Origin: Mobula hypostoma
Lineage: Eukaryota
Length of the DNA stretch: 64,000 nt
Assembly: GCF_963921235.1 (NCBI RefSeq)
Contig: NC_086097.1
Span: 57,600,001-57,664,000, forward strand
Reading direction: 5' to 3'
Every line of letters begins with the position of its first letter. Positions within the stretch are counted from its first letter, which is position 1. The position numbers and the translations under genes are program-made. The notes under the pieces were generated by a model. That model was not told the DNA's origin. It searched no databases and worked only from the letters and a program-made list of their open reading frames with translations. This document shows positions 17,107 through 56,449 of the stretch, piece after piece.

Positions 17107-17324
17107 CCATACATCAAAGTTGCTGGTGAACGCAGCAGGCCAAGCAGCATCTATAGGAAGAGGCGCAGTCGACGTTTCAGGCCGAGACGAACTCCTGACG
17201 AAGGGTCTCGGCCTGAAACGTCAACTGCGCCTCTTCCTATAGATGCTGCTTGGCCTGCTGCGTTCACCAGCAACTTTGATGTATGTTGCTTGAATTTCCA
17301 GCATCTGCAGAATTCCTGTTGTTT
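17107..17324. mobile_element. Palindromic PLE-derived mini-element 1
   Basis: ~80-bp inverted arms with 1 mismatch; TSD acagtttcaaaggg at 17093-17106 and 17325-17338. Confidence 0.92.
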
Positions 17325-18394
17325 ACAGTTTCAAAGGGATAGCTTCTGCCTTGTAGGTAATGTTTTTGTTTGAGTTCTGTATTTTAGCTACAAATTATTG
17401 TCTCCACTCACACACTGAACACTGCAGGTGTGAGACTCTGTAAGTACAACATCCATAGGCCACGGTGAATACATTTATTTTCATAAGAGTTAGACGGATT
17501 AGAATCTAGCTCATGACAAAAGGCATACTGCTGGAGATTCCCCATTTTCTTTCTAAAATTAAATTGTTTATTAAAAAGAAGTTTAGTACAGCTTGACTGA
17601 TTTAATGCAAAGGAGAATTATTACTGTTCAAACCATAAATTTAATTGTGTTTTCCATTTTCCCTGTTCATTTAAAGCTTATTAATTTATCCAATGCAAAA
17701 ACAAAAAAACAGGCTAGGCAGTATCTGTGGAAAAGGAAATAGAGTTAAAGTTTCAGGTTGACTAATATTCATTAGAATCATCAACTCTTTTTCTTTCCAG
17801 AGATATTGACTGACCAACTCTCTGTAGCATTTTCTACATTGTTCTAGCATCCTCAGCTTTTTATTTTTATATATTGCTGTGATTTATGTGTTAAATAATT
17901 CAAAACTAATGACAGCAATGGCCCATGTGCTACCTAGGCACTAAGGGTTCAGACGACGACGAATGACAGCAATTCTGAAACGTATTGTTTTATCATTCAA
18001 AAAATTAGTTAGAAATTCATTTGTCAGGAACTTCTGCTGCTGGTGTTAGTAGGCATTCCAGAATTAAGCTAATGTTCCTTGATTTGCATTGATGCTATAT
18101 CTGGAACATTGCCCTACATAGGAAGGTCTGAAAATAAAGCATATGAATTCCACACCCATGTCAATATTCTTTGCCTGAAAAATCTTATGTCATCTTGGAC
18201 ATATCTCTGCTGGGTTGTAATAAACTGATACTGATTTGACGCTGTTTGTGTTGCACTAATTTCCTACGATAGCCACAGTCATGCAAATTTTTGATTCACA
18301 GAATTCAATCAGCTTTGCCTTTTTATATAATGCTTATTTTGACCAATTATAAGATGTCTTCACCTATTAGACAAGTGGATGCAAGATAGGGACT

Positions 18395-18702
18395 ATAGGC
18401 ATCTGTTAGTCTCGTGAGACCATGGATTTACACCTTGGAAGGTTTCCAGGACGCAGGCCTGGGCAAGGTTGTATGGAACACCGGCAGTTGCCTATGCCGC
18501 AAGTCGCCCCTCTCCACGCCACTGATGTTGTCGAAGGGAAGGGCACTAGGGCCGATACAGCTTGGCACCCGTGTCGTCGCAGAGCAATGTGTGGTTCAGT
18601 GCCTTGCTCAAGGACACAACACACTGCCTCCCTCAGCTGAGGCTCAAACTAGCGACCTTCAGATCACTAGACCGACGCCTTAACCACTTGGCCACATGCC
18701 AA
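18395..18702 (-). mobile_element. Near-full-length tRNA-derived SINE (CORE-like)
   Basis: Minus strand has ggcatgTGGCCAAGTGGttaagg...GTTTGAGCC and gtgtccttgagcaaggcact. Same family as 12543. Confidence 0.8.
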
Positions 18703-18719
18703 GACTATGTGAACTTCAA

Positions 18720-19575
18720 TTCGGAATAAGAATCACCCTTATTATCAGACATATGAATTTAAATTTGCTGTTCTACAGTAACAGTAGAATGCAAAGGCAA
18801 AATCTACAAATTACAAAAGTAAATAGTGCAATAAAATGAATAATGAGATAGTGGTCATGGCTTCATAAACCATTCAGAAATCTGAGGGCAGAGAGGAAGA
18901 AGCTGTTCCTAAAACGTCTTCAGGACCTTCTCCCTGAGGTGGTAATGAGAAGAGGGCATGTTCCAGATGGTGAGGGTCTTTAATGATATGTGCCACCTTC
19001 TTCGGGCATTGTCTCTTGAAGATATCCTCAATAGCATGCTTGGTCGTACCAGTGATAGAGCTGGTTGAGTCTACAACCTTCTGCAGCCTCGTGTGATCCT
19101 GTGCACTAGAGACTCCATAGCAGACAGTGATGCAATTCAATCAGAATGCTCTCCACCTACTGAAATCTGTAAGAGTCTTTGGTGACATACCAGATCTTCT
19201 CAAGGTCCTACCAAAGTAGAGCCATTGGTGTGCCTTCTTCTTGATTGCATCAGTATGTTGGGTTCAGCATAGATTCTCCAAGATGTTGATATCCAAGAAC
19301 TTGAAGCTATTCATCCTTTACACTCTTGACCCCTAGATGTGGACTAGTATGTGTTCCCCTGACTTCACCTTCCTGAAGTCTACAACTAATTTCTTGGTCT
19401 TGGTGACATTGAGTGCCAGGTTATTGTTCAGACCAACCAGCCAAACAACCTTGCTGCTGTAAGCCTCTTCATTGCTATCTGAGATTCTACCAACACTGTC
19501 ACTGGTGAATTTATAGAAGGAGCTTGAGCTTTACCTAGTCACACAGTTTCAAGTGCAAAGAGAATAAAGCAGAGG
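18720..19575 (-). mobile_element. Old Rex1/L2-like LINE 3' fragment
   Basis: ORF 18874-19140 (CITVCYG..LQKVV..IIKDPHH). Confidence 0.75.
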
Positions 19576-19730
19576 GAGGTATACCTGCTTTTCTGCTGAT
19601 TCTTATTAATTTCTAGGTAGTTAAGATCAAAAGTAAGTAATTGAAATACAAATTAGGAACAATGCAATTGAACTGGCCTGTAGCATTCATGAGTTTATGT
19701 TTATGTTAACATCTTTGAAATGTTCTTCTA

Positions 19731-19906
19731 CAAGTCCTCCCCAGTTTATGAATGCCCTGTGTATCTTCATTTCATAACATATGTTTGGGAGAGTGGTGAG
19801 ATGGATCGGCTACCTTTAATGCGAGGGGCCAGTTCATGGCGGCATTTCCAATTTATAAGCTGTTAAATTTACAAGCTGAGCCCAACCATAACGTAAGGAG
19901 GACCTG
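19731..19906. mobile_element. Tigger-like MITE
   Basis: TA-caagtcctcc ... ggaggacctg-TA: terminal inverted repeats plus TA duplication. Confidence 0.65.
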
Positions 19907-21629
19907 TATAGTAATGTTTGAAACACATAATTTTAATTATATTATGATTAAAAGATTCAAATTTATATCTGTGCATTAGTATTTTGTTAGAAAATTAAAA
20001 CCAGCCTAACAAAAATTTATTGCAGATTGTGGTAACTTTGTTTATTCATCCAATGGCGAATATTTTCATTTGCTATTTTCTGCATTACCACAAGATGGCA
20101 GGTGTAGTCAACCATAATGTTGGATATCACAAAAATTCCCAAACCCTGATTTGATTACCATGTGAACGGCAAGATGATTAAGATTTCTATGAGGTAATCT
20201 TTCATTTAAATTCTGATTCTTTGCTGTTCTATGGTTTTACTAATCCATCCTTCTAGTAAGGTAGTTGCTTGTCAGCACTTTGTTCGTGCTGGTATCTGAC
20301 ATGCGGCATTAGATTCTGAAAATACTACAGCTGACCCCTCTGCAATTCAACTGCTATTGAGCTTAAAATTTAATAAATTTTTATTAGCTTTTGTGAATAG
20401 CAGATAGATAATGTTGTCTACTATTGGTGCAACAGGCTTCTAAGTTTAGCTAGTAACTTTTCATAAACTATACTGGTATCTGTCCCCCACGTTTCCTTCG
20501 CTACATCGACGACTGCATTGGCGCTGCTTCCTTCATGTCTGTTGAGCTCGTTGACTTCATTAACTTTGCCTCCAACTTTCACCCTGCCCTCAAGTTTACC
20601 TGGTCCATTTCCGACACTTCCCTCCCCTTTCTAGATCTCTCTGTCTCTATCTCTGGAGACAGCTTATCTACTGATGTCTACTATAAGCCTACGGACTCTC
20701 ACAGCTATATAGACTATTCTTCTTCTCACCCTGTCTTTTGCAAAAATGCCATCCCCTTCTCGCAATTCCTCCGTCTCCGCCACATCTACCCTCAGGATGA
20801 GGCTTTTCATTCCAGGACAAAGGAGATGTCCTCCTTTTTTAAAGAAAGAGGCTTCCCTTCCTCCACCATCAACTCAAACACATCCCTCCCATTTCACGCA
20901 CAACTGCTCTCACCCCATCCTCCTGTCACCCTACTAGGATTAGGGTTCCCCTTGCCCTCACCTACCACCCCACCAGCCTCTGGGTCCAACATATAATTCT
21001 CTGTAACTTCCGCCACCTCCAACGGGATCCCACCACTAAACACATCTTTCCCTCCACACCATCTGCTTTCCATAGGGATCGCTCCCTACGCGACTCCCTT
21101 GTCCATTCATCCCCCCCATCCCTCCCCACTGATCTCCCTCCTGGCACTTATCCTTATAAGCGGAACAAGTGCTAACATGCCCTTACACTTCCTCCCTCAC
21201 TACCATTCAGGGCCCCAGACAGTCCTTCCAGGTGAGGTGACATTTCACCTGTGAGTCGGCTGGGGTAATATACTGCGTCCTGTGCTCCCGATGCGGCCTT
21301 CTATATATTGGCGAGACCCGACACAGACTGGGAGACCGTTTCACTGAACACCTACGCTCTGTCCGCCAGAGAAGCAAGATCTCCCAGTGGCCACACATTT
21401 TAATTCCACATCCCATTCCCATTCTGCTAAGTCTATCCACGGCCTCCTCTACTGTAAAGATGAAGCCACACTCAGGTTGGAGGAACAACACCTTATATTC
21501 CATCTGGGTAGCCTCCAACCTGATGGTATGAACACTGACTTCTCTAACTTCCGTTAATGTCCCACCTCCCCCTCCTATCCCATCCGTTTTATATACATAT
21601 ATTTAAAAAATATATATATATATATAAAT

Positions 21630-22480
21630 AATGTAGTAACTCCAAAAACATGTTCACTGTTTTCATGAGATTTGGTGGCTTTTAGCAAATCAGTCTTTAA
21701 AGGTAGTTCTGAAACTGCTAGCCATGGGTATTTCACCATCTGCTTCTGCAATACCATGCCAAAATATTTACCTCGAGCAAAAAATATTAATGTCTATTGG
21801 GTCAACCAATAAATAACACAATTACTATTGACAATCTAACAATGCAGCATCACATCTGTGTAAAAACTTTAAATCGGCTTATTAATTTAAATAGAGAAAG
21901 AGAGAACCTGTGGATTGCCGAATACCAGATGAATTGCGATAGTCTTTGGGGTAACTGTAAGGTCTGTGTTTCTGCTATCGCTTAGCTCGCACTTGTGCTC
22001 AGTAGCGGGTGTGGTTTTTGTTGTGCCAGTGGGGGGAGGGGAGATTGTTGCTCGCCGCCGCTTACGCACGGGAGGGAGAAGCTGGGGGTACTTTGGGGTT
22101 CTCACATTTAACTGTCATTCATTCTTCGGGGCATTTCTCTGTTTTTGTGGATATTTTGCAAAGAAAAAGCATTTCAGGATGTATATGGTATACGTTTCTC
22201 TGACATTTAATTGAACCTTTGAAATGTTATCTTGGTTCCAATCTTTAGAAATGTCATCAAACTTAAACATTAATAATATTTTGCTCTCCACATATACTGC
22301 TTGACCTGATGAAAGTATGCAGTAGTTTCTGATTTTAAGTCAGATTTCCAGCATCTGCAGTTTTGTTTTTTGCTTCATTATCTACTATCAAACATGAAAC
22401 AGGAAAGAAAGTGAAATAAAAAAGAAGAAAGGTGTCATGCTTTTGCAGAGATGGCAGGACACTCCAATGGGCACAGCAAT
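21630..22480 (-). repeat. Inverted duplicate (derived copy) of 24576-25426
   Basis: 851-bp reverse-complement match with a few percent differences; flanked on both sides by (TA)n. Confidence 0.95.
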
Positions 22481-22742
22481 ATATATATATATATATTTCT
22501 TTTTCTCTCTCTCCTTTTTCTCCCTCTGTCCCTCTCACTATACTCCTTGCCCATCCTCTGGGCTTCCCTCCTCCCCCTTTCTTTCTTCGTAGGCCTCCCA
22601 TCCCATGATCCTCTCATATCCCTTTTGCCAGTCAACTGTCCAGCTCTTGGCCCCATCCCTCCCCCTCCTGTCATCTCCTATCATTTTGGATCTCTCCCTC
22701 CCCCTCCCACTTTCAAATCTCTTACTAGCTCTTCTTTCAGTT

Positions 22743-22778
22743 AGTCCTGATGAAGGGTCTCGGCCCGAAATATCGACT
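22743..22778 (+). ncRNA. Minimal type-I hammerhead ribozyme motif (AUC site)
   Basis: agtc-CTGATGA-a-gggtctcggccc-GAAA-ta-TC-gact. Confidence 0.7.
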
Positions 22779-24279
22779 GTACCTCTTCCTATAGATGCTG
22801 CCTGGCCTGCTGCGTTCACCAGCAACTTTTATGTGTGTTAACTTTTCATAATGCTGATCTAGATCTCAGCACTAACAGAAAATGGATAAACAGGAAGAAG
22901 GCAGCCTAACTAATCTCATGCTCCTGTGTGTTTAGTTCTGGAGTGTATTTGGAAGTACTGCTGTAGCAAGTATTTTACTTATCCTTTTAATTGGGGAATA
23001 ACTAAGAAAGTAATATTTAAATGGAAAGAAGGTACACAATTGATGGATGAAAATGTATTTTTTGTGAACCTAGATGCCGTGCATTTAAAGTTGCTGATGG
23101 TGTTGATTGAAGAAGACTTGCAGATTAGGGTGGTGAAAGATCTTTTTTTTGTGTTTAGTAGAGTCACAATTCTCATTGTTTGCTTGAATCATCAGATTGA
23201 CAGAGGAGGTTTGGGTAATTTCATTAACAGTCCTTCTGACAATACTGTGTGCCATCACTGCAGAATGGCTCGTACTGAACAAAGGTCTATGTGAAACCCT
23301 TCACAATTTCAGGACACCCAGAAACATATTAGCTTTTGCAGCTAATTAAGTACTTTTGAAGTGCAGTCAATGTTGTAATGATGGAAACATGGCAAATTTA
23401 CACAGTGATAATGATCACATAATCTGTTCTGGTGAAGTTAATTGAGCATTAAATCTTAGCCAGCACACTTTGGAGAACTAATCTGTTTTCCTTGTAAAAA
23501 GTTCCAGTCGGATCTTTTATGTACACACGTATGGGAAACTGGAATCTTGATTAGCACTGTATTAGAGTGTCAGCCTAGATTTTTGTGCTCAAATCTGGAC
23601 CCTGAATACACAACTCTTGAACACAAGGAGTGTGAGTACTTCCAACGGAGACACGCAAAATTACAAGCTCATATTCAGAGGTGAGCTTGAACTCGTGCTT
23701 TTCTGGTTTACAAAGTTAAGCTGGAACAAGAGTTGCTTTCTTCGTACTTATTCGTTGTTGAAATTGTTTATCCTAGACTTTGGGATAAAATCACAACCAT
23801 CATAATTGTACTTCTTATATCCTACCTGCACATGACCCTTCAGGAAATAATCACCATCAAATGTCTATGAAAGATGGTCAACAGGTAATATGCTTAAGAA
23901 GATTGGGAAGGCCTCCCTTTATCAAGTTCCATTTTGCAACTTGCACTATATTTGTAAAATTCGTTGCTGGAGGATATCAGACCATTAATGTGGGTCAGGG
24001 CTGTGACTTGAGGAAATTCATCAGTTCTGTAGCTCCAGAAAGGGTACAGAAAAGGAGAATGTGATTCAGTAAAGCAGGAAAATGACTACCTCTGATCCTA
24101 ACTTATACTCAATGGTTGATTACACAGACCTATAAATTTCTGTTTATTTCATCAAATAATGTGTTCTTTTGGTTGGGTGAAAGAAACTATTGGATTGTCC
24201 AAACAAACTGCAATCTGACAGAGAGTTTCCTACTTTACAAATGTTGAATATTTTGCCTGCAAAATACTTGCTTTTACAA

Positions 24280-24587
24280 CACAGAGGGGCCATTCAGCTC
24301 ATCAGAGCAATTGAATCATTTTGATTCGCCCACTTTGTTTTTTCACTATGGCCGTACAGCTTACTTTGTTCCTCATTCCCATCAACTCCCTGTTGATTCT
24401 TTTGCCACTTACATATACTCTGAGTAATTTGAAGTAGCCATTTAACCTACCAACATGTCTATGGAATGTGCAAGGAATTGTGGAATATGCATCAAAAATC
24501 TTGCAAACTCAATGTAAACATTACCCAAGGTCAGAATTGAAGCTACCTTCATTGAGCTGTGAGACAACTGTGCTAATTGCTGTGCCC
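24280..24587 (-). mobile_element. Degenerate tRNA-derived SINE (V-SINE/HE1-like)
   Basis: Minus strand starts ggcacagcaattagcacagttgtctcacagct and has a CR1-like 3' tail. Confidence 0.55.
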
Positions 24588-25426
24588 ATTGGAGTGTCCT
24601 GACATCTCTGCAAAAGCGTGACACCTTTCTTCCTTTTTATTTCACTTTCTTTCCAGTTTCATGTTTGATAGTAGATAATGAAGCAAAAAACAAAACTGCA
24701 GATGCTGGAAATCTGACTTAAAATCAGAAACTACTGCATACTTTCATCAGGTCAAGCAGTATATGTGGAGAGCAAAATATTATTATTGTTTAAGTTTGAT
24801 GACATTTCCAAAGATTGGAACCAAGATAACATTTCAAAGGTTCAATTAAATGTCAGAGAAACGTATACCATATACATCCTGAAATACTTTTTCTTCGCAG
24901 AATATCCACAAAAACAGAGAAGTGCCCCAAGGAATGAATGACAGTTAAATGTGAGAACCCCAAAGTACCCCCAGCTTCTCCCTCCCGTGCGTAAGCGGCG
25001 GCGAGCAACAATCTCCCCTCCCCCCACTGGCAAAACAAAAAACGCACCCGCTACTGAGCACATGCGTGAACTAAGCGGTAGCAGAAACACAGACCTTACA
25101 GTTACCCCAAAGACTATCGCAATTCGTCTGGTATTTGGCAATCCACAGGTTCTCTCTCTCTCTATTTAAATTAATAAACCGATTTAAAGTTTTTACACAG
25201 ATGTGATGCTACATTGTTAGATTGTCAATAGTAATTGTGTTATTTATTGGTTGACCCAATAGACATTAATATTTTTTGCTCGAGGTAAATATTTTGGCAT
25301 GGCATTGAAGAAGCGGATGGTGAAATACCCATGGCTAGCATTTTCAGAACTACCTTTAAAGACTGATTTGCTAAAAGCCACCAAATCTCATGAAAACAGT
25401 GAACATGTTTTTGGAGTTACTACATT
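24576..25426 (+). repeat. Donor copy of the inverted duplication; contains a short non-autonomous element (24833-25165) of the same family as 54685-55062
   Basis: Continuous with the flanking SINE. ORF-track peptides mirror those at 21887-22214. Confidence 0.93.
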
Positions 25427-25478
25427 GACAATGTTGTGCTTCACTGGATTAAGATAGAGGAGAAGTAGTCTGGCATAA

Positions 25479-28820: not shown

Positions 28821-28945
28821 TAACAAGCTCCAATTGGTTTTGTTCCTAACAACCTCACATGCAGTGAGTTCCAGATCACAGCCACTCCTGCACTACATTT
28901 TTTTTGCCCATCACTTTGAAATCTCTCGTCATTGAACCATTTTTT

Positions 28946-31900
28946 TTAGATTATGAGGACACGCTGTCCTCTTTTATTGTCATTTAGTAATGCATGCATT
29001 AAGAAATAGAAACCATAGAAACCATAGAAACTACAGCACAGAAACAGGCCTTTTGGCCCTTCTTGGCTGTGCCGAACCATTTTCTGCCTAGTCCCACTGA
29101 CCTGCACACGGACCATATCCCTCCATACACCTCCCATCCATGTATCTGTCCAATTTATTCTTAAATGTTACAAAAGAACCCGCATATACCACCTCGTCTG
29201 GCAGCTCATTCCATACTCCCACCACTCTCTGTGAAGAAGCCCCCCCAATGTTCCCTTTAAAGTTTTCCCCCCTCACCCTTAACCCATGTCCTCTGGTTTT
29301 TTTCTCCCCTTGCCTCAGTGGAAAAAGCCTGCTTGCATTCACTCTATCTATACCCATCATAATTTTATATACCTCTATCAAATCTCCCCTCATTCTTCTA
29401 CGCTTCAGGGAATAAAGTCCTAACCTATTCAACCTTTCTCTGTAACTGAGTTTCTCAAGTCCCGGCAACATCCTTGTAAACCTTCTCTGCACTCTTTCAA
29501 CCTTATTTATATCCTTCCTGTAATTTGGTGACCAAAACTGAACACAATACTCCAGATTCGGCCTCACCAATGCCTTATACAACCTCATCATAACATTCCA
29601 GCTCTTATACTCAATACTTCGATTGATAAAGGCCAATGTACCAAAAGCTCTCTTTACGACCCTATCTACCTGTGACGACACTTTTAGGGAATTTTGTATC
29701 TGTATTCCCAGATCCCTCTGTTCCACTGCACTCCTCAGTGCCTTACCATTAACCCTGTATGTTCTACGTTGGTTTGTCCTTCCAACGTGCAATACCTCAT
29801 ACTTGTCAGTATTAAACTCCATCTGCCATTTTTCAGCCCATTTTTCCAGCTGGTCCAAGTCCCTCTGCAGGCTCTGAAAACCTTCCTCACTGTCTACTAC
29901 ACCTCCAACCTTTGTATCATCAGCAAACTTACTGATCCAATTTACCACATTATCATCCAGATCATTGATATAGATGACAAATAACGATGGACCCAGCACT
30001 GATCCCTGTGGCACACCACTAGTCACAGGCCTCCTCTCAGAGAAGCAATTCTCTACCACCACTCCCTGGCTTCTTCCATCGAGCCAAAGTCTAATCCAAT
30101 TTACCACCTCTCCATGTATACCTAGCGACTGAATTTTCCTAACTAACCTCCCATGCGGGACCTTGTCAAAGGCCTTACTGAAGTCCATGTAGACAATATC
30201 CACTGCCTTCCCTTCATCCACTTTCCTGGTAACCTCCTCGAAAAACTCCAACAGATTGGTCAAACGTGACCTACCATGCACAAAGCCATGTTGACTCTCC
30301 CTAATAAGCACCTGTCTATCCAAATGCTTGTAGATTCTGTCTCTTAGTACTCCCTCCAATAACTTACCTACTACTGACGTTAAACTCACCGGCCTATAAT
30401 TTCCCGGATTACTTTTCGATCCTTTTTTAAACAACGGAACAACATGAGCCACTCTCCAATCCTCCGGCACTTCACCCGTAGACAGCGACATTTTAAATAT
30501 TTCTGCCAGGGCCCCTGCAATTTCAACACTCATCTCCTTCAAGGTCCGAGGGAACACTCTGTCAGGTCCCGGGGATTTATCCACTTTAATTTTCCTCAAG
30601 ACAGCAAGCACCTCCTCCTTTTTAATCTGTACAGTTTCCATGGTCTCACTACTTGATTCCCTCAATTCCATAGATTTCATGCCAGCTTCCTTAGTAAATA
30701 CAGACGCAAAAAACCTATTTAAGATCTCCCCCATTTCCTTTGGTTCCGCACAAAGCCGACCACTCTAATCTTCAAGAGGACCAATTTTATCCCTTACAAT
30801 CCTTTTGCTCTTAATATACTTGCAAAAGCTCTTTGGATTATCCTTCACTTTGACTGCCAAGGCAACCTCATGTCTTCTTTTAGCCCTCCTGATATCTTTC
30901 TTAAGTATTTTCTTGCACTTCTACACTCCTCAAGCACCTGATATACCCCCTGTTTCCTATACATTTCATACAACTCCCTCTTCTTCTTTATCAGAGTTGC
31001 AATATCCCTTGAGAACCAAGGTTCCTTATTCCTATTCAATTTGCCTTTAATCCTGACAGGAACATACAAACTCTGCACTCTCAAAATTTCCCCTTTGAAG
31101 GCTTCCCACCTACCAATCACATCTTTGCCAGAGAACAACCTGTCCCAATCCACGCTTTTTAGATCCTTTCTCATTTCTTCAAATTTGGCCTTCTTCCAGT
31201 TCAGAACCTCAACCCTAGGACCAGATCTATCCTTGTTCATGATCAAATTGAAACTAATGGCGTTATGATCACTGGAACCAAAGTGCTCCCCTACACAGAC
31301 TTCCATCACTTGCCCTAATTCGTTACCTAACAGGAGATCCAATATTGCATCCCCTCTAGTTGGTCCCTCTATATATTGATTTAGAAAACTTTCCTGAACA
31401 CATTTTACAAACTCTAAACCATCTAGACCCAATGATACAATGTTCCTCCAGTATGATATCACAGAAACACAAGACAGACCAAGACTAAAAAAACTGACAA
31501 AAACCACATAATTATAACATATAGTTACAACAGTGCAAAGTAATACTGTAATATGATAAAAAACAGACCACGGGCACGGTAAAAAAAGTCTCAAAGACTC
31601 TCGAAAGTCCAGTCATCTCACGCAGACGATAGAAGGGAGAAACTCTCCCTGCCATGAACCTCCAGCGCCGCAAACTTGCCGATACAGCACCCTGGAAGCA
31701 CCCGACCACAGCTGACTCTTGAGTCCGTCCGAAAACTTCGAGCCTCCAACCAGCCCTCTGACACCGAGCACCATCTCTGCCGAGCGCTTTGACCCTGGCC
31801 CCGGCAACAGGCAATAGGCAAAGCCGAGGATTCAGGGCCTTCCCCTCCGGAGATTCTTGATTGTACAGTAGCAGCGGCAGTGAAGCAGGCATTTCAGATG

Positions 31901-32017: not shown

Positions 32018-32526
32018 TCCTCCCCTCCTTTGCTTATGGAAACAGCTTTTCTCTCTATGTAGGATTTTAAATAACGGATCATGAATCATTAAAGTACTAG
32101 AAATTCTAAGTGGGAATACTTTGTGCTAATTGCTCCATTTTCAATTCTGTTAGTAATTTTTCAAAAGCTGAAGTGTAACTTCAATTACATTCATTCATGG
32201 GCTGCACAGGTGTCAGGCATTCCCATGCTTAATCATCTATAAGTGACTTGTTACTGATGTCCTCTTCACCCAAGTCTTCCATCATCAACATCCTGAAAGG
32301 GGTCACCACTGACCAGAAACTCATCTGGTCAGCTGTGATCACATAACAACCCTCATAAATACTGTGGCTATAAAGATCAGATGAGAGCCTGAGCATCCCG
32401 TGACAAATGACTTGCATTACCTTTCCATCATCTACAAGGTTCAAGTCAAGAGCTGGATGAATGTAGTTCCTGCAACACTCGAGAAGCTCAACAACACCCA
32501 GGACAAAGCAGTTTGCTTTACTAGTA

Positions 32527-32753
32527 AACAACAGGAATTCTGCAGATGCTGGAAATTCAAGCAACACACATCAAAGTTGCTGGTGAATGCAGCAGGCCAA
32601 GCAGCATCTATAGGAAGAGGCGCAGTCGACGTTTCAGGCCGAGACCCTTCAGTTAGTCCTGACGAAGGGTCTCGGCCTGAAACGTCGACTGCGCCTCTTC
32701 CTATAGATGCTGCTTGGCCTGCTGCGTTCACCAGCAACTTTGATGTGTGTTGC
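32527..32753. mobile_element. Palindromic PLE-derived mini-element 2
   Basis: ~90-bp inverted arms; TSD ttgctttactagta at 32513-32526 and 32754-32767. Confidence 0.92.
32655..32690 (+). ncRNA. Minimal type-I hammerhead ribozyme motif (GUC site)
   Basis: agtc-CTGACGA-agggtctcggcct-GAAA-cg-TC-gact. Confidence 0.78.
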
Positions 32754-34159
32754 TTGCTTTACTAGTACCACTTATACCAACTGAATCATTTCCTTCCACC
32801 ATTGACAAATCATGACTAAACTGCACCATTTGTAAAATTCACTGGACTTATTAGTCAAGACACCTCCTATAGCAGCTCCCATATTGATGATTCCTACCAC
32901 TAAGTATGACAAAGGTAGCAAATGTATGGAAACACTAACATCTCCAGGGTCACTTCTAAGTTTTACGACATCAGGACTTCAAAATAAAGCATCACTACTG
33001 CTTTATCATCAATGATTCTAAATTCTGGAACATGCCAGTTAGCAAGACCTTCACTACTAGGGTTGCAGTATTGCAAGAAAGCTGTCTTCTCAAGGGTAGA
33101 TAAGGATGTACAATAAATATTTAACATTCCCATTTATATTCTGAAAAATTACTTAAAACATATTAGACTACATAATACAATTTATTACTGCGTAAATGCT
33201 GTAATACCTATTATCTGGTATTTGTAGCTGGACAGACCTTGAAGGAAGTGGTATGTAAGGGTGAGAGCAAAAGAAATTGTGTTTTTAACTTAGAAGTTTC
33301 TTAATTTTTAAAGGCTTTGAAAGGTGATTTGGAACTGGCCAAATTTAGTAGTACCAGCATTGCCCCCAATCCTTTGCAAAGATATATTAATTAGCTATAA
33401 TGTGCACTAAAGAGAGAAAGCTTGATTCTGGTTGACACAGTGAAACAAATTTGAGCAAGGCCAGAAATGAGCAAAGGATGTATGGTCAAGGAAGAGCCAG
33501 CTGGAGTACCTGTCGATTTGTATTGGATCTGGATCATTTATGGATCCAGCGATTGAAGTATTTAAACTGGTATGTGAGGGGAGAAAAGGAAAGCAGACGA
33601 TTTTGATCTTTCAGAGATTTCCAGTTCCCTGTCTTAACACCTTGATTAGATCAAGAGGATGTTGGAGTAGAACACTATTGTAAGCTACCAAGAATGAGCT
33701 GTCCACAGTCTATAATTATATTCTGATATTTATGGTAGCATTTGCAATTCCCAGGTAAACTGCTGGAATAGTGTTAAAATCTCACACCCACAACCTCATA
33801 GTATTTTTTTATTGAGCTTTTTCTTCCAAGAAATAATACCAGTTCTTCCTGTTTAATTTTGTAGTTTAAATCCCTCATGCCTGGAACTGATCCATTAAAA
33901 TTTTACTGCACCCTCTCTCAACATTTACATCTTAAATTCCGGTAGTGACAAGAATGAGGCATAGGACACCAGCTCAGGCATAACTTATCTGATTTCTTTG
34001 CTTTCAAATTGATATTAGTTTGCACAAATATTCTCTGTTGTTAACTCTTCAACAGTAATTCCAATAATGTTAACATAATTGTGATCAAATGTTTTATTGC
34101 TTAAAGGCATAGACAAAAAAATCACATTTCATAGATTAACTACTTCTAATCTGGTGAAT

Positions 34160-37799: not shown

Positions 37800-39078
37800 A
37801 ACACACATCAAAGTTGCTGGTGAACGCAGCAGGCCAGGCAGCATCTCTAGGAAGAGGTACAGTCGATGTTTTGGGCCGAGACCCTTCATCTGGACTAACT
37901 GAAGGAAGAGCTAGTAAGAGATTTGAAAGTGGGAGGGGGAGGGGGAGATCCAAAATGATAGGAGAAGACAGGAGGGGGAGGGATGGAGCCAAGAGCTGGA
38001 CAGTTGATTGGCAAAAGGGATATGAGAGGATCATAGGACAGGAGGCCCAGGGAGAAGGAAAGGGGGGAGGGGGGGAAACCCAGAGGATGGGCAAGGGGTA
38101 TAGTGAGAGGGACAGAGGGAGAAAAAGGAGAGAGAGAGAAAGAATGTGTGCATATAAATAAATAACGGATGGGGTACGAGGGGGAGGTGGGGCATTAGCG
38201 GAAGTTAGAGAAGTCAATGTTCATGCCATCAGGTTGGAGGCTACCCAGACGGAATATAAGGTGTTGTTCCAACAACCTGAGTGTGGTTTCATCTTCACAG
38301 TAGAGGAGGCCGTGGATAGACATATCAGAATGGGAATGGGATGTGGAATTAAAATGTGTGGCCACTGGGAGATCCTGCTTTCTCTGGCGGACAGAGCATA
38401 GGTGTTCAGCAAAACAATCTCCCAGTCTGCTTCGGGTCTTGCCAATATATAGAAGGCCACGTCGGGAGCACCGGACGCAGTATATCACACCAGCCGACTC
38501 ACAGGTGAAGCGTCGCCTCACCTGGAAGGACTGTCTGGGGCCCTGAATGGTGGTAAGGGAGGAAGTGTAAGGGCATGTGTAGCACTTGTTCCGCTTACAA
38601 GGATAAGTGCCAGGAGAAAGATCAGTGGGGAGGGATGGGAGGGACGAATGGACAAGGGAGTTCGCATTGGGAGCGATCCCTGCAGAAAGCAGAGAGAGGG
38701 AGGAGGGAAAGATGTGCTTAGTGGTGGGATCCCGTTGGAGGTGGCGGAAGTTACGGAGAATAATATGTTGGACCCGGAGGCTGGTGGGGTGGTAGGTGAG
38801 GACCAGGGGAACCCTCTCATATCCCTTTTGCCAATCACCTGTCCAGCTCTTGGCTCCATCCCTCCCCCCTCCTATCTTCTCCTATCATTTTGGATCTCCC
38901 CTTCCCCCTCCCACTTTCAAATTTCTTACTAGCTCTTCCTTCAGTTAGTCCTGATGAAGGGTGTTGGCCCGAAACGTCGACTGTACCTCTTCCTAGAGAT
39001 GCTGCCTGGCCTGCTGCGTTCACCAGCAACTTTGATGTGTGTTGCTTGAATTTCCAGCATCTGCAGAATTCCTCGTGT
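37800..39078 (-). mobile_element. Penelope-like element (GIY-YIG) with an inverted terminal-repeat copy, inserted in an old CR1
   Basis: ORF 38195-38521 GVIYCVRC..LYIG; TSD caacattgctgt at 37788-37799 and caacattgatgt at 39079-39090. Confidence 0.92.
38947..38982 (+). ncRNA. Minimal type-I hammerhead ribozyme motif (GUC site)
   Basis: agtc-CTGATGA-a-gggtgttggccc-GAAA-cg-TC-gact. Confidence 0.75.
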
Positions 39079-47472: not shown

Positions 47473-47485
47473 TGGTGTCAGAAGT
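47473..47485 (+). promoter_or_regulatory. Primer-binding site complementary to the 3' end of tRNA-Leu
   Basis: TGGTGTCAGAAGT directly after the LTR-terminal CA. Confidence 0.8.
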
Positions 47486-48130: not shown

Positions 48131-50793
48131 AAAAAGAATGGCATCAAATCAGTAGAAAGATGGGACATAGGATCAGAAGATGTTGAATCCTTGTGGGTTG
48201 AGTTAAAAAATTGCAAGGGTAAAAGGATGTTGATGGCAGTTATATGCAGGCCTCCCAACAGTGGCTGGAAGTTGGGCCACAGGTTACAACAGAAAATAGA
48301 AAAGGTGTGTCAAAAGGGCAATGTTATGGTCGTCATGGGAGATTTTAACATGCAGGATGATTGGGAAAATCAGGTTGGTAATGGATCTCAAGAGAGTGAG
48401 TTTGTTAATTGCCTAAGGGATGGCTTTTTAGAGCAGTTTGTCATTGAGCCTACCAGGGGATCAGCTATACTGGATTAGGTGTTATGCAATGAATCGGAGG
48501 CGATTAGCGAGCCTAAGGTAAAAGTACCCTTAGGAACCAGTGATCTCAATATGATTGAGTTCAGCTTGAAATTTGATAGGGAGAAAGAAAAGTCTGATGC
48601 AGCAGTATTTCAGTGGAGTAAGGGAAATTACATTGGTGTGAGAGAGGAGTTGGCCAAAGTAAATTGGAAGGAGCTGCTGGCAGGGATGTCAGCAGAGCAG
48701 CAAAGGCGTTCATTTCTGGGAAAAAATGAGGAAGGTGCAGGACATGTATATTCCAAAAATGAAGAAATACTCAAATGGCAAAATAGTACAACCGTGGCTG
48801 ACAAGGGAAGTCAAAGCTATTGTAAAAGCAAAAGGAAGGGCATACAACAAAACAAAAATTAGTGGGAAGATAGAGGATTGGGAAGTTTTTAAAAACCTAC
48901 AGAGAGCAACTAAACAATTCATTAGAAGGGAAAAGATGAAGTATGAAAGCAAGCTAGCAAATAATATCAAAGTGGATAGTAAAAGTTTTTTCAAGTGTGT
49001 TAAAAATAAAAGAAATGAGAGTGGCTATAGGACTGCTAGAAAATGAGGCAGGAGAAATAATACCGGGGGACAAGGAGATGGCTGATGAACTAAATGAGTA
49101 TTTTGCATCAGTCTCCACTGTGAAAGACACTAACAGTATGCTTGATGTTAGAGTGTGTAAAGAAAGAGAAGTGGATGCAGTTACTATTATGAGAGAGAAG
49201 GTGCTTAAAAAGATAAAAGACCTAAAGGTACACAAGTCACCCGGACCAGATGAACTGCACCCTAGGGTTCTGAAAGAGGTAGCGGGAGAGATTGTGGTGG
49301 GCATTAGAAATGATCTTTCAAAAATCATTGGACTCTGGCATGGTGCCTGAGGTCTGGAAAACTGCAAATGTCACTCCACTCTTTAAGAAAGGAGGAAGGC
49401 AGCAGAAAGAAAATTATAGACCATTTAGCCAGACCTCAGTGGTTGGGAAGATGTTAGAGTCAATAGTTAAGGATGAGGTGATGGAGTACTTGGTAACACA
49501 GGACAAGATAGTACAAAGTCAGCATGGTTTCCTTCAGGGAAAATCCTGCCTGATGAACCTGTTGGAATTCTTTGAGGAGATTACAAGTAGGATAGATAAA
49601 GGCGATGCCATGGATGTTGTACATTTGAACTTTCAGAAGGCCTTTGACAAGGTGACACACATGAGGCTGCTTACCAAGTTAAGAGCCCATGGTATTACAG
49701 GAAAGTTACTAACATGGTTAGAGCATTGGCAGATTGGTAGGAGGCTGCGAATGGGAATAAAAGGATCCTTTTCTGGTTGGTTGCCAGTGACTAGTGGTGT
49801 TCCGTAGAGGTTGGTATTAGGACCACTTCTTTTTATGCTGTATGCAAATGATTTAGATGATGGAATAGATGGCTTTGTTGCCAAATTTGCAGATGATACA
49901 AAGATCGGTGGAGGGGCAGGTAGTGTTGAGGAAACAGGTTGGATGCAGAAGGACTTGGCCAGATTAGGAGAATGGGCAAGGAACTGGCAAATGAAATACA
50001 ATGTTGAAAAATGCATGGTCATGCACTTTGGTAGTAGAAATAAATACATGGACTACTTTCTAAACAGGGAGAAAATCTGAAAATCTGAGATGCAAAGGGA
50101 CTTGGGAGTCCTTGTGCAGAACACCTAAAGGTTAACTTGCAGGTCAGGCTGGTGGTGAGGAAGGCAAATGCCATATTAGCATTCATTTCAAGAGGTCTAG
50201 AAGGATGTGATGTTGAGGCTTTATAAGGCACTGGTGAGGCCTCATCTTGCTTATTGTGAACAGTTTTGGGCCCCTCATCTCAGAAAAGATGTGCTGGCAT
50301 CGGAGAGGTTCACATGGATGATTCCAGGAATGAGAGGGTTATCATACGAGGAACGTTTAATGGCACTGGGTCTGTACTTGCTGGAATTCAGAAGCATGAG
50401 GGGGAATCTCATTGAAACCTTTCGAATGTTGAAAGGCCTAGACAGAGTAGACGTGGAAAGGATGGTTCCCATGGTGGGAGAGTCTAGGACAAGGGAGCAC
50501 AGCCTCAAGCACCCTATCAAAACAGAGATGTGGAGAAATTTCTTTCGCCAAAGGGTGGTAAATTTGTGGAAGTTGTTGCCACATGCAGCTGTGGAGGCCA
50601 GGTCGTTGGGTGTATTTAAGGCAGAGATTGATAGGTTCTTGATTGGACATGGCATCAAAGGTTACAGGGAGAAGGCCAGCATCTGGGGTTGAGGAGAAGA
50701 GAAAAAACAAGGATTAGCCATAATTGAATGGCGGAGCAGACTCGATGGGCCAGATGGTCTAATTCTGCTCCTGTGTGTTATGGTCGTACGGCC
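48131..50793 (+). mobile_element. CR1 LINE ORF2 inserted in Gypsy gag
   Basis: MGDFN endonuclease motif, RT fragments and 3' tail. Confidence 0.93.
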
Positions 50794-52247
50794 TAATCTC
50801 AAGCTAAAGAGCTGCACAGGGCAGAACCAACAGTGCATGCTATGAAGACAGAGGGGCAGAGCACAAGGTGTTTCCCAAAGCAACAGCATAGTAAAGAAGT
50901 GGGATCAAGTGGTAACTGCAGTTAATTCGGAAGAGGAATCATTCCGTAAAGTGCAGCAAAGCTACCAAGAGAAAGGTGCACACAGTTGCTGAGGAGATGG
51001 AAGAACTCTTTGTAGATTCTCTGCAGACTGTTGGTGAGACAGAATGGATTGTTCCAGTGACTGCAAATGAGACAATAATTCCATTCAAGCTTGACACAGG
51101 AGCCCAGGTGAATCTGTTATCCATGGATGATTACAAGTCCCTCAAAGTAAAGAGCAAGATTTACCCAGTGAAGTTAAAAGTGACTGTCTATAATGGAGAG
51201 AATGTTACAGTAAAAGGATTTGTATAGTGACCTTGAAGCACAAGGGGCAGCGCCTAAAGGCATGGCTACTGGATGTAGAAAAGAGAATCCAGCCAATATT
51301 AGAAAAGTGTGAAAAGCTTAACTTTTTGTGAAGAGTTTTTGTAGGGGCTTAACAGACCAGCGATGACCAGGCAATACTCAATAAAGAGTACGCAGATGTC
51401 TTTGAAGGGCTCAGATGCTTACCTGATTTAACTCAAGAAACTTATAATAGCATTCAGGAGAGATCCAGAGGGGTTGTACAGGAGAAGCAGAAGAACTCTA
51501 CCTTCCAGAGACATCTGTACCAGCTACACCACCACGACAGTCAGGATTCCAGTGTGGAACAGAGTGATCATGATGAAGAAGTCGCCAGTTTTGCTACATC
51601 ACACAGCTGTAGTTTAAAATCTGTCTCTCATCGACTCCAGTTTAAGACTGGAAATCAAAAATATCTCCACGATTCTCTCCGAAGTTGAAGAGGAAAAATA
51701 AAAAAAGAAGATGGGTGAACACACAGGTCAGAACTATAGCAACAAGTCAGCACAGACCGACAGGAGGAGTTGCAGTCTATGATATACAGCGAACAGAAGG
51801 AGCTCCGTTAATTGAGACAGACTCAGTTGGAACTTGTGCAAAGATTCACTGATCACATGGATGTATTCCAGGGCTCCATTATGAGGCAAGAACAACAAGA
51901 ACAAAAGCAAAGGCGAACAGATAAAATCTTGGCAAAAGGATGTGAAAGAATTGAACACATAGATCAGAGTTCTCAAAAGGACACTGGTATTAATGCAGCA
52001 AGTGAAAGCAAGATATCAGTGGAAACAAATAACAATCCTAAAGGGTTCGTTAAGCCGCTACAGTGACAGATTGAGAGTGGCTGAGTGAATGGGGGACTGT
52101 ATTTGCTTATTACAATTGAAGTTAATGTAAAAATCTTAGGAAAACATTATTGTGCTTTGCAGACTTATGAGGACATTGTATTGTGTTTGTTTTCCTTTAA
52201 AGGGTGATGGTGTGTTATTATGTGTGTACATGGTAAAGAACTTCAGT

Positions 52248-52609
52248 CAACACATACAAAATGCTGGAGGAACCCAGCAGGTCAGGCAGCATCTATAAAA
52301 GAGTGTAAACAGTTAACATTTCCAGCTGAGACCCTTCATCACGACTGGTTGTGGGTTTGGGTGAGCATATGGTCGAAAGTCGGAAGGCAGCAGAGATTAC
52401 GGGGGGAGCAGTGAGAGAGGGTTTTACTGAAATCCCGTCAAAGGGAAGAGACTTTGCAGTGTAGCAGTAGTACAAAGATGAGAAAATCTGCAGATGCTGG
52501 AAACCCAAGCAACACACAAAATGCTGGAGGAACTCACCAATACGTTGACTGTTTGCTCTTTTCCTGGCCTTCTGAGTTCATATAGCATTTTGTGTGCAGA
52601 TTTTCTCAT
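52248..52609. mobile_element. Older rearranged PLE terminal-repeat insertion inside the 3' LTR
   Basis: TSD taaagaacttcagt at 52234-52247 and taaagaactttagt at 52610-52623; degenerate hammerhead at 52311-52346 (minus). Confidence 0.8.
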
Positions 52610-54102
52610 TAAAGAACTTTAGTTCCCAGTGGGCAATGTGGGTGGTTCACCCGGAACTGGAAGTGACATTGGTGAAGGGGACACATAGGCTCTTGGTGGA
52701 CTAGAGAGTCCTGGAGTAAAATGTGGTCAAGTTTAAGCCATTCTGTAAACTGTAAATAAAATAGTTACAGCATTTTTACCCATGCAAGTTTGTCTTTGTT
52801 AAAGAACAGACATAACATAAATGACTGGGCAAACATGGGTTGGTTTTATTGATATGTATATTCAATGCCATGGCCCAACAGTAAAGGAAATCTCCCTGGA
52901 ATGTAAGGAATTTAAACAATTTGATTGCATTACTCCCAATTTTAAGTTGCATTGATTGTGTTTAAAATGCTCTGTCCATTTTAGCTAGACTAGGATCAGT
53001 ATTCAAAATTGCTGTTGTCTTTTTCAATTTAGCTATCCCGTTTGCTGTAAAAATGAAGAAAATGCCTTTTAGTACTTCCTAGTTTACAGAAGTATACGCA
53101 GTATGTTACTGCTCAAGGCCAGGTGGGATGGGAAACGGAGTAGTCAGCTCCAACAACTGATGTGTTTATTTATTTATTAATTATTATTATTTTTCTTTTT
53201 CTCTTCTATATTACGTATTGCATTGAACTGCTGCTGCTAAATTAACAAATTTCATGCCAATGCCGGTGATAATAAACCTGATTCTGATTCTGAATTGCAA
53301 AACGTACAATGATGTTTGAATAAATCATAAATCCTTATGCACTACGTCTAATATATAAAATTCAGAAAACTTTTAAAATGCATTTCATCACCTGTGATAT
53401 AATTTGTATTTTATGCACAACAGGGAAATCAGTTTGTAAAATCAAAGTTAATGCAGAATAGCAGTTTTCATATTAACAAGTGACACATATCAAATGTATA
53501 TGAGCAAAATGCTTTTCTTGTAACATAACTAAGGAGAAAATGTGATCATCAAAGAAATGCAAATTGCATTGAGAGAGATGTTTTGAGGTGACCTATTCTA
53601 CTTCAGAGTGCCATCTGGCTTTCAAAAATATCTTGTAATGATGAACCACATATCAGCTAGACTTAGTATGCTCAAGGAACTGTTGGAAGGACAATCTGTC
53701 AATGATCCTTGAAAGTTGGATAATGTTGCGTTAAATGGCCCCAGGTGCTCCATTCAAGCTTAAGAAGATAGCATTTGTACTTCGAGAACACCATCTGTGA
53801 CAACAGGTTTGTTAGGTATTTAAAGTGTGTAGTTGAAAGCGATTGATGTCAAAGTCAGTAGAATCGAGTATTAAGAGAAAACATGTAAATAATATTGTTC
53901 CAAGTCTTTCAGAGTGGGAATGATGCACAATTTCTCACAGGTGCTAGTAATTTGCCTATTTGTTTGCAGGAAGTTGTAGCCTTAGATAATTTTTTTGATT
54001 TATGAAACATCTTGACAAGTGACAGCATAGCTTAGTAAAAGAGCTTTTAATGCCTTCAAGATTGTAGGTTTTTAATGGATCGGACAGTGATATAAACTTT
54101 AC

Positions 54103-54285
54103 AAATAAACAAACTGCTGGAGTAACTCAGCAATCAGACATCATCCATGACGGTAGAGAGATAGTCAATGTTTCAGATTGAGACCCTACATCAGGAACTC
54201 CCTGACCTGCTGAGTTCCTCCAGCAGTTTGTTTTTTTTCTCTCTCTTTGCTTCAGATTCCAACATCTGCAGTGTCTTGAATCTCC
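54103..54285. mobile_element. Old PLE-derived fold-back fragment
   Basis: aaacaaactgctggagtaactcagca and tgctgagttcctccagcagtttgttt inverted arms around a decayed hammerhead. Confidence 0.65.
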
Positions 54286-56221
54286 ATATAAACTTTGCAA
54301 ATATTTTTGTAATCAAAGTGTTTGGACCTTTGCTCTTGCACCTTATGTAGCCGTATTGAGCCTGGATCTGGAGTATTGAGCTCCTTACCTGATGAAAAGG
54401 GAGTGCAGCAAAGGTTCTCCAGGCTTTTCCTGGGATGCTGAGTCCATCATATGAAGAAAGATTGAGTAGGATGGACCTTTATCCTCTAGAGTTTAGAAAA
54501 GTGATTGGTCTCCTTATGTGACATGTTTATTTAGTGGACAACCAGATGACTTCGGGGAGAATGTTTCCTCTCTAAGGAGTCTACCACTAAGTGTCACAAT
54601 CTCAAAATACAGGTTAGGCCATTATGGAACAAACTGAGGAGAAATTTCTTCACTCAGCTAATGGTGAATCTTTGCATTATTTGGATGTTTGTGGAGTGAA
54701 ATGGGGACTCCTCTTTTTCCCTTATTAGGGAGAGAGAGAGAGAGCCTGTGGCATGTCGAATTACCCGGTGAACAAGTAGTCTTTGGGGTACTGCAAGTCA
54801 GTGTTTTTATTGATGCTTTGCTAAATGCCTAAGTGCTTGGTGGAGGGTGCAGATGCTGTTTTGCTGGTGGGGGGGGGTCGTCATTTGCTGCTGCTTATGC
54901 ATGGGAGGGGGAGCTGGGGGGGCTTTGGGGTTCTAACATTTAAGTGTCATTCACTATTTGGGGCACTCCTCTGTTTTCGTGGATGTTTGCGAAGAAGTAG
55001 AATTTCAGGATGTATATTGTACATTACTCTGACATTAAATGTACCTATTGAAACCTATTGAATTAATTACATTCAAAACTCAATATATTTCTGAATATCA
55101 GTCATCAGGAGATTTGCATGTAGGGTAGGAAAATGACACTGCGATAGAATATTGCATAAGATCATGTTGAATGGAAGACTAGGTTCAATGGACTGAAAGA
55201 CCTACTCTAATTTTTACACCTTTTGTGTCCCTGTTATGCTCTTATTTACCTCCATCATTTTCTGAATAAAAAATTATTCAGTCATTTTATTTAGTAATCA
55301 AAGTAGCAAGGTAAAATGGACAATCAAAAAGTAATTGAGTTAAGAGTAGAGTGCTTCCACCAGAACAATTGTATTAGCTGAAAGGATATTTAGGTGATTA
55401 ATTTGGTCAATCCATAATGGATAACCACAGATCTTATTTTTACAACTTCCAGGTGATCCATTATGCTCAGATGCAGGAACAAGGAAGTGCCTCCAAATAT
55501 TTATCTGTCCGCTTTCAGATCTCTGTAAAAAGAACAGTCTAGGTGCTTTTCTTAATGGAAGCAGAGATATGTTTGCTTATAAAAAATAAAATAATTCCAA
55601 TTTCTTGTTGCTGAATAGATAATTGAATTCAAGTGCAATTGAAAATGCTTCAGGAGTTTGATTTTAAAATTCCAGTTATTAATCTAATACTTTTGTACAA
55701 ATGCTACCATTCTGCATATTTATAATTCCGGCCAATTTTTCATTTTTCCATTCTATTTTTTTAATCTTTTCTACAATTAAAAGTATTAACTACTTTCAAA
55801 ATTATTTTGATAATACTTGAAATATCACAGCTTCCTGTCTCATCTTTGCGAAGGAATATGGAAGTCTTTAGGGTGTCTTGAGAAAGGAGGATGAAAGCAA
55901 GGTTTACTACCTTAAGTACTCCCTTTGAAGTTGGTTTTCTAAAATGAATACAGGTTGAGTACTCCTTATCTGAAAATCCAAACTCCGTAAACTTCCGAAA
56001 TCCAAAGTTTTTTTGGGTGTTAACGCGACAGCACAAATTTCACAAAACACTAGGAAGGCTCCCAGGTGATGCGCAGGTCTCTGCACACCACAGACATTTC
56101 TGAAAAGTGACCTTATAATGAACAAAAGTTAATGAAAAAAATGTAAAACATTGCATTAAGCAAAAAATGAAGAGCTTGAATGTGTATTTGTCAGCGTCAG
56201 AGTGAACATACTATATGGTGG

Positions 56222-56449
56222 CAACATACATCAAAGTTGCTGGTGAACGCAGCAGGCCAAGCAGCATCTATAGGAAGAGGCGCAGTCGACGTTTCAGGCC
56301 GAGACCCTTCGTCAGGACTCTGACGAAGGGTCTCGGCCTGAAACGTCGACTACGCCTCTTCCTATAGATGCTGCTTGGCCTGCTGCGTTCACCAGCAACT
56401 TTGATGTATGTTGCTTGAATTTCCAGCATCTGCAGAATTCCTGTTGTTT
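56222..56449. mobile_element. Palindromic PLE-derived mini-element 3
   Basis: ~95-bp inverted arms with a 4-nt loop; TSD atactatatggtgg at 56208-56221 and 56450-56463. Confidence 0.93.
56284..56319 (-). ncRNA. Minimal type-I hammerhead ribozyme motif (GUC site)
   Basis: Minus strand reads agtc-CTGACGA-agggtctcggcct-GAAA-cg-TC-gact. A second core lacking stem I starts at 56320 on the plus strand. Confidence 0.78.

Follow-up and report, generated by a model that had tools for sequence, protein, structure and literature searches.

Hairpin insertions of a Penelope-like element with a predicted hammerhead in Mobula hypostoma are separate integration events

The DNA analyzed, called the window throughout, is a stretch of 64,000 nucleotides from Mobula hypostoma (NCBI RefSeq assembly GCF_963921235.1, contig NC_086097.1, positions 57,600,001 to 57,664,000 of the forward strand). 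It contains three hairpin insertions of about 220 bases, each made of two inverted copies of the terminal repeat of a Penelope-like element that carries a predicted hammerhead ribozyme motif. The data showed that such hairpins are separate insertions made anew at each integration, and not descendants of one mini-transposon. As the origin of each hairpin we favor, at slightly better than an even chance, two primings of reverse transcription that both run off the end of a short RNA. The stall or template switch at the hammerhead proposed in the original prediction was not supported, and neither was a cut there.

Positions in the element were numbered with -1 as the last tail base of L062, a natural 3,002-base copy. 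On this scale the CTGACGA core of the hammerhead occupies -130..-124, and the predicted cut, placed by the published minimal motif, lies between -103 and -102. The three hairpins were found at the places first named (Table 1), each flanked by an exact 14-bp target duplication and with the tail confined to one arm. As predicted, the arms were nearly perfect, with a single mismatch per pair (80/81 bases in hairpin 1, 83/84 in hairpin 2, and 93/94 in hairpin 3). Hairpin 1 had 4 inserted letters between its arms (apex -120/-132, CTGACGA core at 17195-17201), hairpin 2 had arms overlapping by 5 bases at 32646-32650 (apex -125/-143), and hairpin 3 had a blunt join (apex -134/-130). The predicted fold of 56222-56449 had an energy of -199 kcal/mol (z = -27.7), and 0/200 shuffles were as low. 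The diagnostic bases said to be shared by the hairpins and lacking from longer copies were distributed as described in the window, but genome-wide 41/104 arms with all three extended past -154, up to 3 kb.

Two unselected 100-kb blocks contained one hairpin; since this gave too few hairpins, pattern-anchored samples were used. The junction pattern, which required two arms both reaching -125 with 19 or fewer letters between them, gave at least 4,980 matches genome-wide, versus 24 for the reversed control. Among the 50 junctions listed, most differed, and one recurred up to five times. The exact junction of hairpin 2 was present in 58 genome copies. In the first 24 of these the tail was on the short arm in 13 and on the long arm in 11, and several subfamilies were represented. 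Because one junction occurs with either tail side and in several subfamilies, recurring junctions track microhomology, not descent. This bore out the claims that each hairpin is built anew during integration and that the hairpins are not copies of one master miniature inverted-repeat transposable element (MITE), a reading that was refuted for the one junction tested. No fixed master ends or interior were seen. Cut-and-paste transposases leave MITE duplications of 2-10 bp, and the hairpin duplications were 11-17 bases as called and unrelated in sequence, not short and fixed. A true miniature element, with one or a few master hairpins copied whole, would explain why some junctions recur. It is nevertheless extremely improbable, given that the recurrent junctions lie at microhomologies, with either tail side and several subfamilies, and that most of those listed differ. 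The hairpins also lack the stretch at the start of the open reading frame (ORF) which, for the anole enzyme, must be present downstream of the start sites (PMC11167929), and this would count against a copied element if the requirement transfers to the present one.

Arm pairing was analyzed in 36 two-armed insertions with both outer ends visible (L043, L048, L099, L105, and the three insertions of the window were left out). A tail arm was paired with a tail-less arm in 35 of the 36 (P = 1e-9), and a target duplication, typically of about 13 bp, was present in 34. One-armed copies were divided equally, 20 with a tail and 20 tail-less. Both arms were short in 22 insertions and both long in 10, and the remaining four were mixed (P = 1e-5). 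The 22 short-short joins comprised 11 with an overlap of 2-4 bases, nine with inserted letters, and two that were blunt or overlapped by one base, so that 11 of the 13 joins without inserted letters overlapped by at least 2 bases.

Comparison of the two arms was possible for 87 pairs from 109 loci. Nineteen of the 87 differed at one or more of three subfamily sites (22%, versus 76% for random pairs), and nine rare variants were common to both arms; yet the arms differed at subfamily sites at about seven times the rate seen at other sites. Thus, in most pairs the two arms have a common source or were homogenised afterwards, and in a minority they derive from two RNAs. For example, L126 joins a young arm to an older arm, and L141, L042, and L068 also pair arms of different subfamilies. 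Two primings, one per cut end, fit these data, and self-priming of one complementary DNA (cDNA) as the only route does not. In the self-priming model, which has been proposed for rotifer elements (PMC3846280), one cDNA folds back and copies itself, and an endonuclease trims one arm to leave the single tail. The close match of the arms and their shared rare variants are what this model expects, as are the near-equal long arms of some insertions (632/622 and 442/448), and L033 resembles a snap-back with a three-base loop. However, in the 13 of 24 copies of the hairpin 2 junction in which the tail is on the shorter arm, a tail-primed fold-back cannot yield the structure and a tail-less one supplies no tail. 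Nor does the model explain the mixed-subfamily pairs, or the accumulation of arm ends in one-armed copies described below. Self-priming was therefore excluded as the only route and is improbable as the general one, and the single-strand fold-back of the original prediction fails for many copies.

Three further observations were made at the joins. Seven loop-less perfect hairpins (L340, L347, and five pairs) had their apex at a four-base palindrome at -98, outside the main accumulation of ends. L064, L070, and L110 carried ORF pieces of 30-70 bases between the arms, a sign of template jumps at the join. L291, L301, L306, and L312 had the same 3-4 inserted letters before -134, matching the core just downstream, as if the enzyme had slipped back and re-copied at the template end.

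The positions at which arms end were determined in a young sample, the first 100 pattern places on contig C1 (80 loci), and in an older sample, the first 30 older matches, whose ends were assigned by eye. The young pattern is blind to arms shorter than -102 except as partner arms. With four window arms left out, 51 of the 92 young arms reaching -120 ended within -120 to -153, in agreement with the claim that the apexes cluster next to the hammerhead and vary between copies. In the older sample, 6/28 ended in that zone (P = 0.002). The link to a young subfamily was therefore right as far as short ends are commoner there, but hairpins also occur outside it. The end rate per base, with window arms included, was 0.031 at -130..-138 and 0.021 at -139..-153, versus 0.004 at -102..-119 and 0.0005-0.0016 further upstream. 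The modes of this pile-up were -134/-133 and -148, with six ends at -148 and zero from -149 to -166. One-armed copies showed an equal pile-up (19/38, versus 32/54 in two-armed copies; P = 0.40), and so the apex is merely two pile-up ends joined. Tail and tail-less arms ended at the same place (medians -135 and -131.5, P = 0.11) despite starts 35 bases apart, and a distance-limited early stall was rejected for this reason. The modes match the 5' feet of two mutually exclusive helices, helix I of the hammerhead (-134) and a predicted stem at -149..-118. We take the sequence at -134 to fit an initiator word, and that at -149 a branch-point word.

In another mechanism, a folded hammerhead would stall the enzyme, or self-cleavage would create the template end. 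Travelling 3' to 5', the enzyme reaches the ribozyme at about -99, whereas the ends lie past it, on the far (5') side of the motif. Ends at the cut site (-102/-103) were seen in 3/100 arms of the unbiased young sample. Genome-wide, 65 purine-flanked matches were found at the cut site versus 44 at a control position, and 10 of the 16 cut-site matches examined were true ends, so that the predicted cut holds about 0.7% of arms. The stops also vanished when the motif was crossed a second time. Only one of 27 full-length copies ended in the pile-up zone on the second crossing, compared with the 51/92 arms above (P = 4e-7); these 27 are the copies with an upstream repeat reaching -120, and nine other copies were not counted because their upstream repeat was too short. 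In addition, ribozyme-dead RNA of the anole element inserted normally in vitro (PMC11167929). Stalling, template switching, or cleavage at the ribozyme is thus very improbable as the cause, even though helix I has its first base at the -134 mode and a small cut-site class may exist.

Evidence on the template end came from 50 loci in which the tail reads through into the ORF. A second class among them ran from the tail to the pile-up, jumped into the ORF start, and then ran through the tail again; the jump targets were mostly +68 to +174, with some as far as +303 and one at +1160. All six second passes that reached -120 stopped in the zone, often at the base of the first stop (for example, -135/-135, -145/-145, and -134/-133), and three others ended earlier. 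The first stop predicted the end of the partner arm (r = 0.84, permutation P = 0.011, n = 8; L241, whose ends lie outside the zone, was excluded). These repeated stops are most simply read as a 5' end specific to each RNA molecule, the RNA being short and extending across the repeat-ORF junction. Such an end could be either a transcription start or an exonuclease stop at a helix base. A transcription start that also serves the full-length RNA was rejected, since full-length copies do not end in the zone. For the anole element, RNA coverage is raised at the repeat-ORF junction, and in vitro there are two start sites, both strands are primed, a dimer is predicted, and uncut RNA serves as template (PMC11167929).

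We therefore consider two-priming run-off in the following form. Both ends of a staggered cut would prime reverse transcription, one at the tail start and the other at an internal start about 36 bases upstream. A short RNA with its 5' end just upstream of the hammerhead would serve as template, both cDNAs would run off that end, and joining of the two head to head by microhomology would give a dead-end insertion. Long and full-length copies would come from templates without that end, such as tandem or circular RNA.

Several observations weigh against this explanation. No RNA of the element was seen, the aligned sequence runs being contigs that are not known to be RNA. The four contig runs aligned to L062 showed no sites where many molecules begin, and no clear splice joint was found among the rows shown. 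No cap signature was found before -134, where the first 100 matches had G in 34, A in 29, and C in 37. An excess of TG in 10/12 loci fell to 489/3,821 genome-wide (12.8% versus 10.7% expected), and a cap-derived G plus one added base was consequently not upheld. Within the pile-up, the first and second stops were only weakly correlated (r = 0.36, n = 6). A short arm is combined with a long one in four of the 36 insertions, and in L072 both arms are tail-less. Structure may act directly, given that the pile-up falls on a predicted hairpin. Finally, the full-length copies are a selected set that had already crossed the site once, and most samples came from the first 26 Mb of one contig. Two other observations stand apart from these. 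Polymerase III boxes, sought by eye, were not convincing. In contigs of two organisms (L062:1565, runs X1, X5, and X7), -134 is joined to an ORF place 1,856 bases away with two letters between; this may be either an internal deletion that they have in common or a jump that happened repeatedly.

Direct action of the stem on the cDNA was the main rival. Here, both primings would occur on a long RNA, and the self-complementary segment -149..-119 would fold the cDNA, or pair it with its partner, so that it leaves the template. The limits of the predicted stem are exactly -149 and -118 and the CUGACGA core is hidden in it, there is a wall of ends at -148, recurrent joins use the complementary words of the stem, and palindromic words elsewhere also draw joins. 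However, 26 of the 27 full-length copies crossed the zone on the second pass, one-armed copies showed the pile-up equally, and ends agreed more within than between insertions. Moreover, the stem was no stronger than that of shuffles (z = -0.26), and the share of short ends differed between subfamilies with a near-identical stem. On this evidence we regard the stem as an unlikely cause.

A template that is a splicing intermediate was also considered. The pile-up overlies a branch-point-like motif (-149), a pyrimidine tract, and two AG acceptors (at -137 and -133), and the enzyme would stop at the branch or at bound splicing factors. The wall at -148 lies one base 3' of an invariant A in what we take to be a branch-like word, and the acceptor at -137 was joined exactly to the GT at +175 in two independent insertions. 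An intron of D. virilis ends at the 5' end of helix I (PMC4209133), which is also in keeping with this idea. Yet the exact spliced join was found in only two loci, no splice joint appeared among the displayed rows of the contig runs, and most ends were spread over -120 to -147, repeating at -134, -135, or -145 within one insertion. Splicing was rejected as the main source of the ends on account of the two loci only, and we judge this explanation to be improbable.

The two loci with the exact join, L235 and L259, are rolling arrays of a 310-base unit (Table 1). They are independent insertions with their own duplications and with five differences in 310 bases. In both, +174 (the base before the GT at +175) is joined to -136 (the base after the AG at -137). 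In 39/40 unjoined copies the sole variation in the donor word was its first base, G or A, in which it resembles a minor-spliceosome donor. The arrays likely point to a back-spliced circle around which reverse transcription went repeatedly, and they indicate that the pile-up zone is passed when the template has no end. A further locus, L236 (G000:C2:122541700-122544300), has a tandem unit of 262 bases (-154 to +109) together with an inverted arm that is short and what looks like a target duplication; the join has a one-base overlap and is not of the splice type. In its fullest form, the two-priming explanation would have one integration complex prime both target ends at two fixed starts on a repeat-ORF RNA of about 300 bases, whose 5' end is located at the foot of either the hammerhead or the competing anti-hammerhead stem, and so produce strong-stop-like cDNAs. 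Long copies and retrozyme arrays would then arise only from tandem or circular RNA lacking that end, including back-spliced circles with a minor-type donor at +175 and the acceptor at -137. On this view the hairpins would document the working of the Penelope integration complex across the whole genome. We put this full version forward tentatively, as possible but well short of an even chance.

The parent of the hairpins was examined through its longer copies. It has the features of an endonuclease-bearing Penelope-like element, namely reverse transcriptase (RT) and GIY-YIG domains, pseudo-long terminal repeats (pseudo-LTRs), an optional tail, and a target duplication. L067 has a 693-amino-acid open frame, a single ORF with an RT plus a GIY-YIG at the C terminus. 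The RVT_1 match (E = 1.7e-5) was below the curated cut-off, and the GIY-YIG match, on the C-terminal piece, was above it (23.9 bits, cut-off 22.6). A three-cysteine motif lies ahead of the GIY-YIG region, between RT and endonuclease. A zinc-finger-like linker at this place is the layout of Neptune and Nematis (PMC8557442), and the linker of the parent protein appears from its sequence to be of the Neptune type, shared with Nematis. The parent unit is about 3,520 bases, and its tail continues directly into the ORF start. This exact read-through is kept in 374 copies, and read-through copies with upstream repeats of varying length constitute partial-tandem pseudo-LTRs. Tail-less arms start mostly at -31 to -39, matching an optional tail of 30-40 bases. 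The young pattern, a 33-base word with three diagnostic sites, had 12,201 exact matches in the 3.48-Gb assembly and its older variant 33,712, and long young copies were 98% identical to one another. By inspection, the hammerhead has the CUGANGA and GAAA core, helix II, a short helix I, and a palindromic helix III region, and a minimal motif of this kind is published for Penelope-like elements (PMC4209133). Rfam gave no hammerhead match, only sub-threshold microRNA hairpins (weak mir-3926). The lowest-energy predicted fold was a competing hairpin and not the hammerhead, its stem being the one that hides the core.

In L1 twin priming, both target ends prime and the cDNAs are joined by microhomology, which leaves a 5' inversion within the target duplication. 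There, the second priming is variable and internal and copies upstream sequence, so that nothing is duplicated, whereas here a fixed second start duplicates the terminal repeat. Head-to-head inverted repeats with one tail and a duplication are a known Penelope architecture. Endonuclease-bearing Penelope-like elements are described with head-to-head inverted pseudo-LTR insertions (Craig et al. 2021, PMC8557442; Arkhipova et al. 2013, PMC3846280) that, as here, have an inverted 5'-truncated copy, a target duplication, a tail of 30-40 bases at one end, and short join overlaps or palindromes. In those families, however, the inverted repeat flanks an ORF-bearing unit at low copy, whereas here both arms are minimal and there are thousands of copies; the high copy number is what makes the strict tail pairing, the shared 5' limit, and arms from two templates countable. 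The self-priming model of PMC3846280 does not fit the 13/24 copies noted above. The anole element Poseidon (Frangieh et al. 2024, PMC11167929) is alike in its two starts bounding the tail and its priming of both target strands, but its ORF starts inside the hammerhead, while in the present element the start of the open frame is close to the tail and the cysteine linker of the protein is of Neptune type. The accessible text of that report does not address 5' ends or arm joining. A minimal type I motif in the terminal repeat, such as inspection suggests here, was reported by Cervera and De la Pena 2014 (PMC4209133), together with opposite-strand hammerhead pairs 100-700 bp apart in Schistosoma and many solo motifs. 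That article, as far as it was accessible, gives no account of how such pairs form; here the cut site gives under 1% of ends.

Non-LTR retrozymes are short tandem units with a type I hammerhead that derive from Penelope-like repeats (PMC7229834; bioRxiv 10.64898/2026.07.22.740005). Their mark is at least two tandem units, each with a whole hammerhead. The hairpins differ in being inverted and often cutting into the motif; only the 310-base arrays L235 and L259 fit. The exact GT..AG join of these arrays suggests back-splicing, which is not proposed for retrozymes in the accessible parts of the two sources. Within the part of the literature that was accessible, supplements excluded, there was no account of a high-copy class of minimal hairpins, of paired starts, or of 5' ends piling up next to the ribozyme, and neither the insertion rules nor the short template considered here were found described. 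How Penelope-like elements make tandem and inverted structures is stated to be open in PMC11167929, PMC8557442, and PMC3846280. A young and large family allows insertion events to be counted, and the counts give rules that can be tested in vitro: each insertion has one tail start and one internal start, the arms have a common 5' limit, there are sometimes two templates, microhomology serves for joining, and cleavage by the ribozyme is not required. Two-priming run-off, if true, would show how a poorly understood class of elements inserts. The hairpins could be filed by repeat finders as MITEs or, given the weak mir-3926 matches, as microRNA precursors. Roughly 5,000-18,000 near-perfect stems of about 90 bp could form double-stranded RNA if transcribed; the upper figure is a rough extrapolation from 6/22.

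Table 1. Hairpins, other two-armed or truncated copies, and tandem arrays of the Penelope-like element. Coordinates are window positions unless a contig is given.
Feature	Location	Strand	Description
Hairpin 1	17107..17324		tail-less arm 17108-17188 on - (-40 to -120); tail arm 17193-17324 on + (-132 to -1)
Hairpin 1 target duplication	left 17093..17106, right 17325-17338	+	14 bp, exact
Hairpin 2	32527..32753		tail arm 32527-32650 on - (-1 to -125); tail-less arm 32646-32753 on + (from -143)
Hairpin 2 target duplication	left 32513..32526, right 32754-32767	+	14 bp, exact
Hairpin 3	56222..56449		tail-less arm 56222-56319 on - (to -134); tail arm 56320-56449 on + (-130 to -1)
Hairpin 3 target duplication	left 56208..56221, right 56450-56463	+	14 bp, exact
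Older diverged two-armed insertion	54104..54285		long arm on - to hammerhead 5' side; short tail arm on +
Longer two-armed insertion, older subfamily	14025..14828		tail-less arm to -633, tail arm from about -222; 15-bp duplication
Longer two-armed insertion, older subfamily	37800..39077		tail-less arm to -1051, tail arm from about -257
One-armed tail-less 5'-truncated copy	20467..22839	+	from -1532; 13-bp duplication
L235	G000:C2:157815500-157818600		rolling array of 310-base hammerhead-bearing unit
L259	G000:C50:58410984-58414010		rolling array of 310-base hammerhead-bearing unit

Other copies in the window were also examined. The insertion at 54104-54285, put forward as an older analogue of the hairpins, did have two arms, a target duplication (with one mismatch), and an arm reaching the 5' side of the ribozyme, but it was lopsided, with a second arm of about 75 bases and only about 40 bases paired. 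The tail-less arm of 37800-39077 includes the GIY-YIG coding end, and this insertion has a 12-bp duplication in which one position is mismatched. At 15876-16036, 16576-16726, and 52238-52534 there were relatives of the terminal repeat that are older (about 75% identity), with matches also starting near the 5' side of the hammerhead. The copy at 20467-22839 is split by an unrelated repeat of about 850 bp at 21630-22480; a second copy of this repeat lies at 24576-25426 in the opposite orientation with 96.6% identity, and the one inside the Penelope-like copy entered it at a TA run. An RT fragment of the long interspersed nuclear element (LINE) type was found in two copies, 7814-9337 and 29006-30530, which are 97% identical over 1,529 bases and lie 20 kb apart in opposite orientation.

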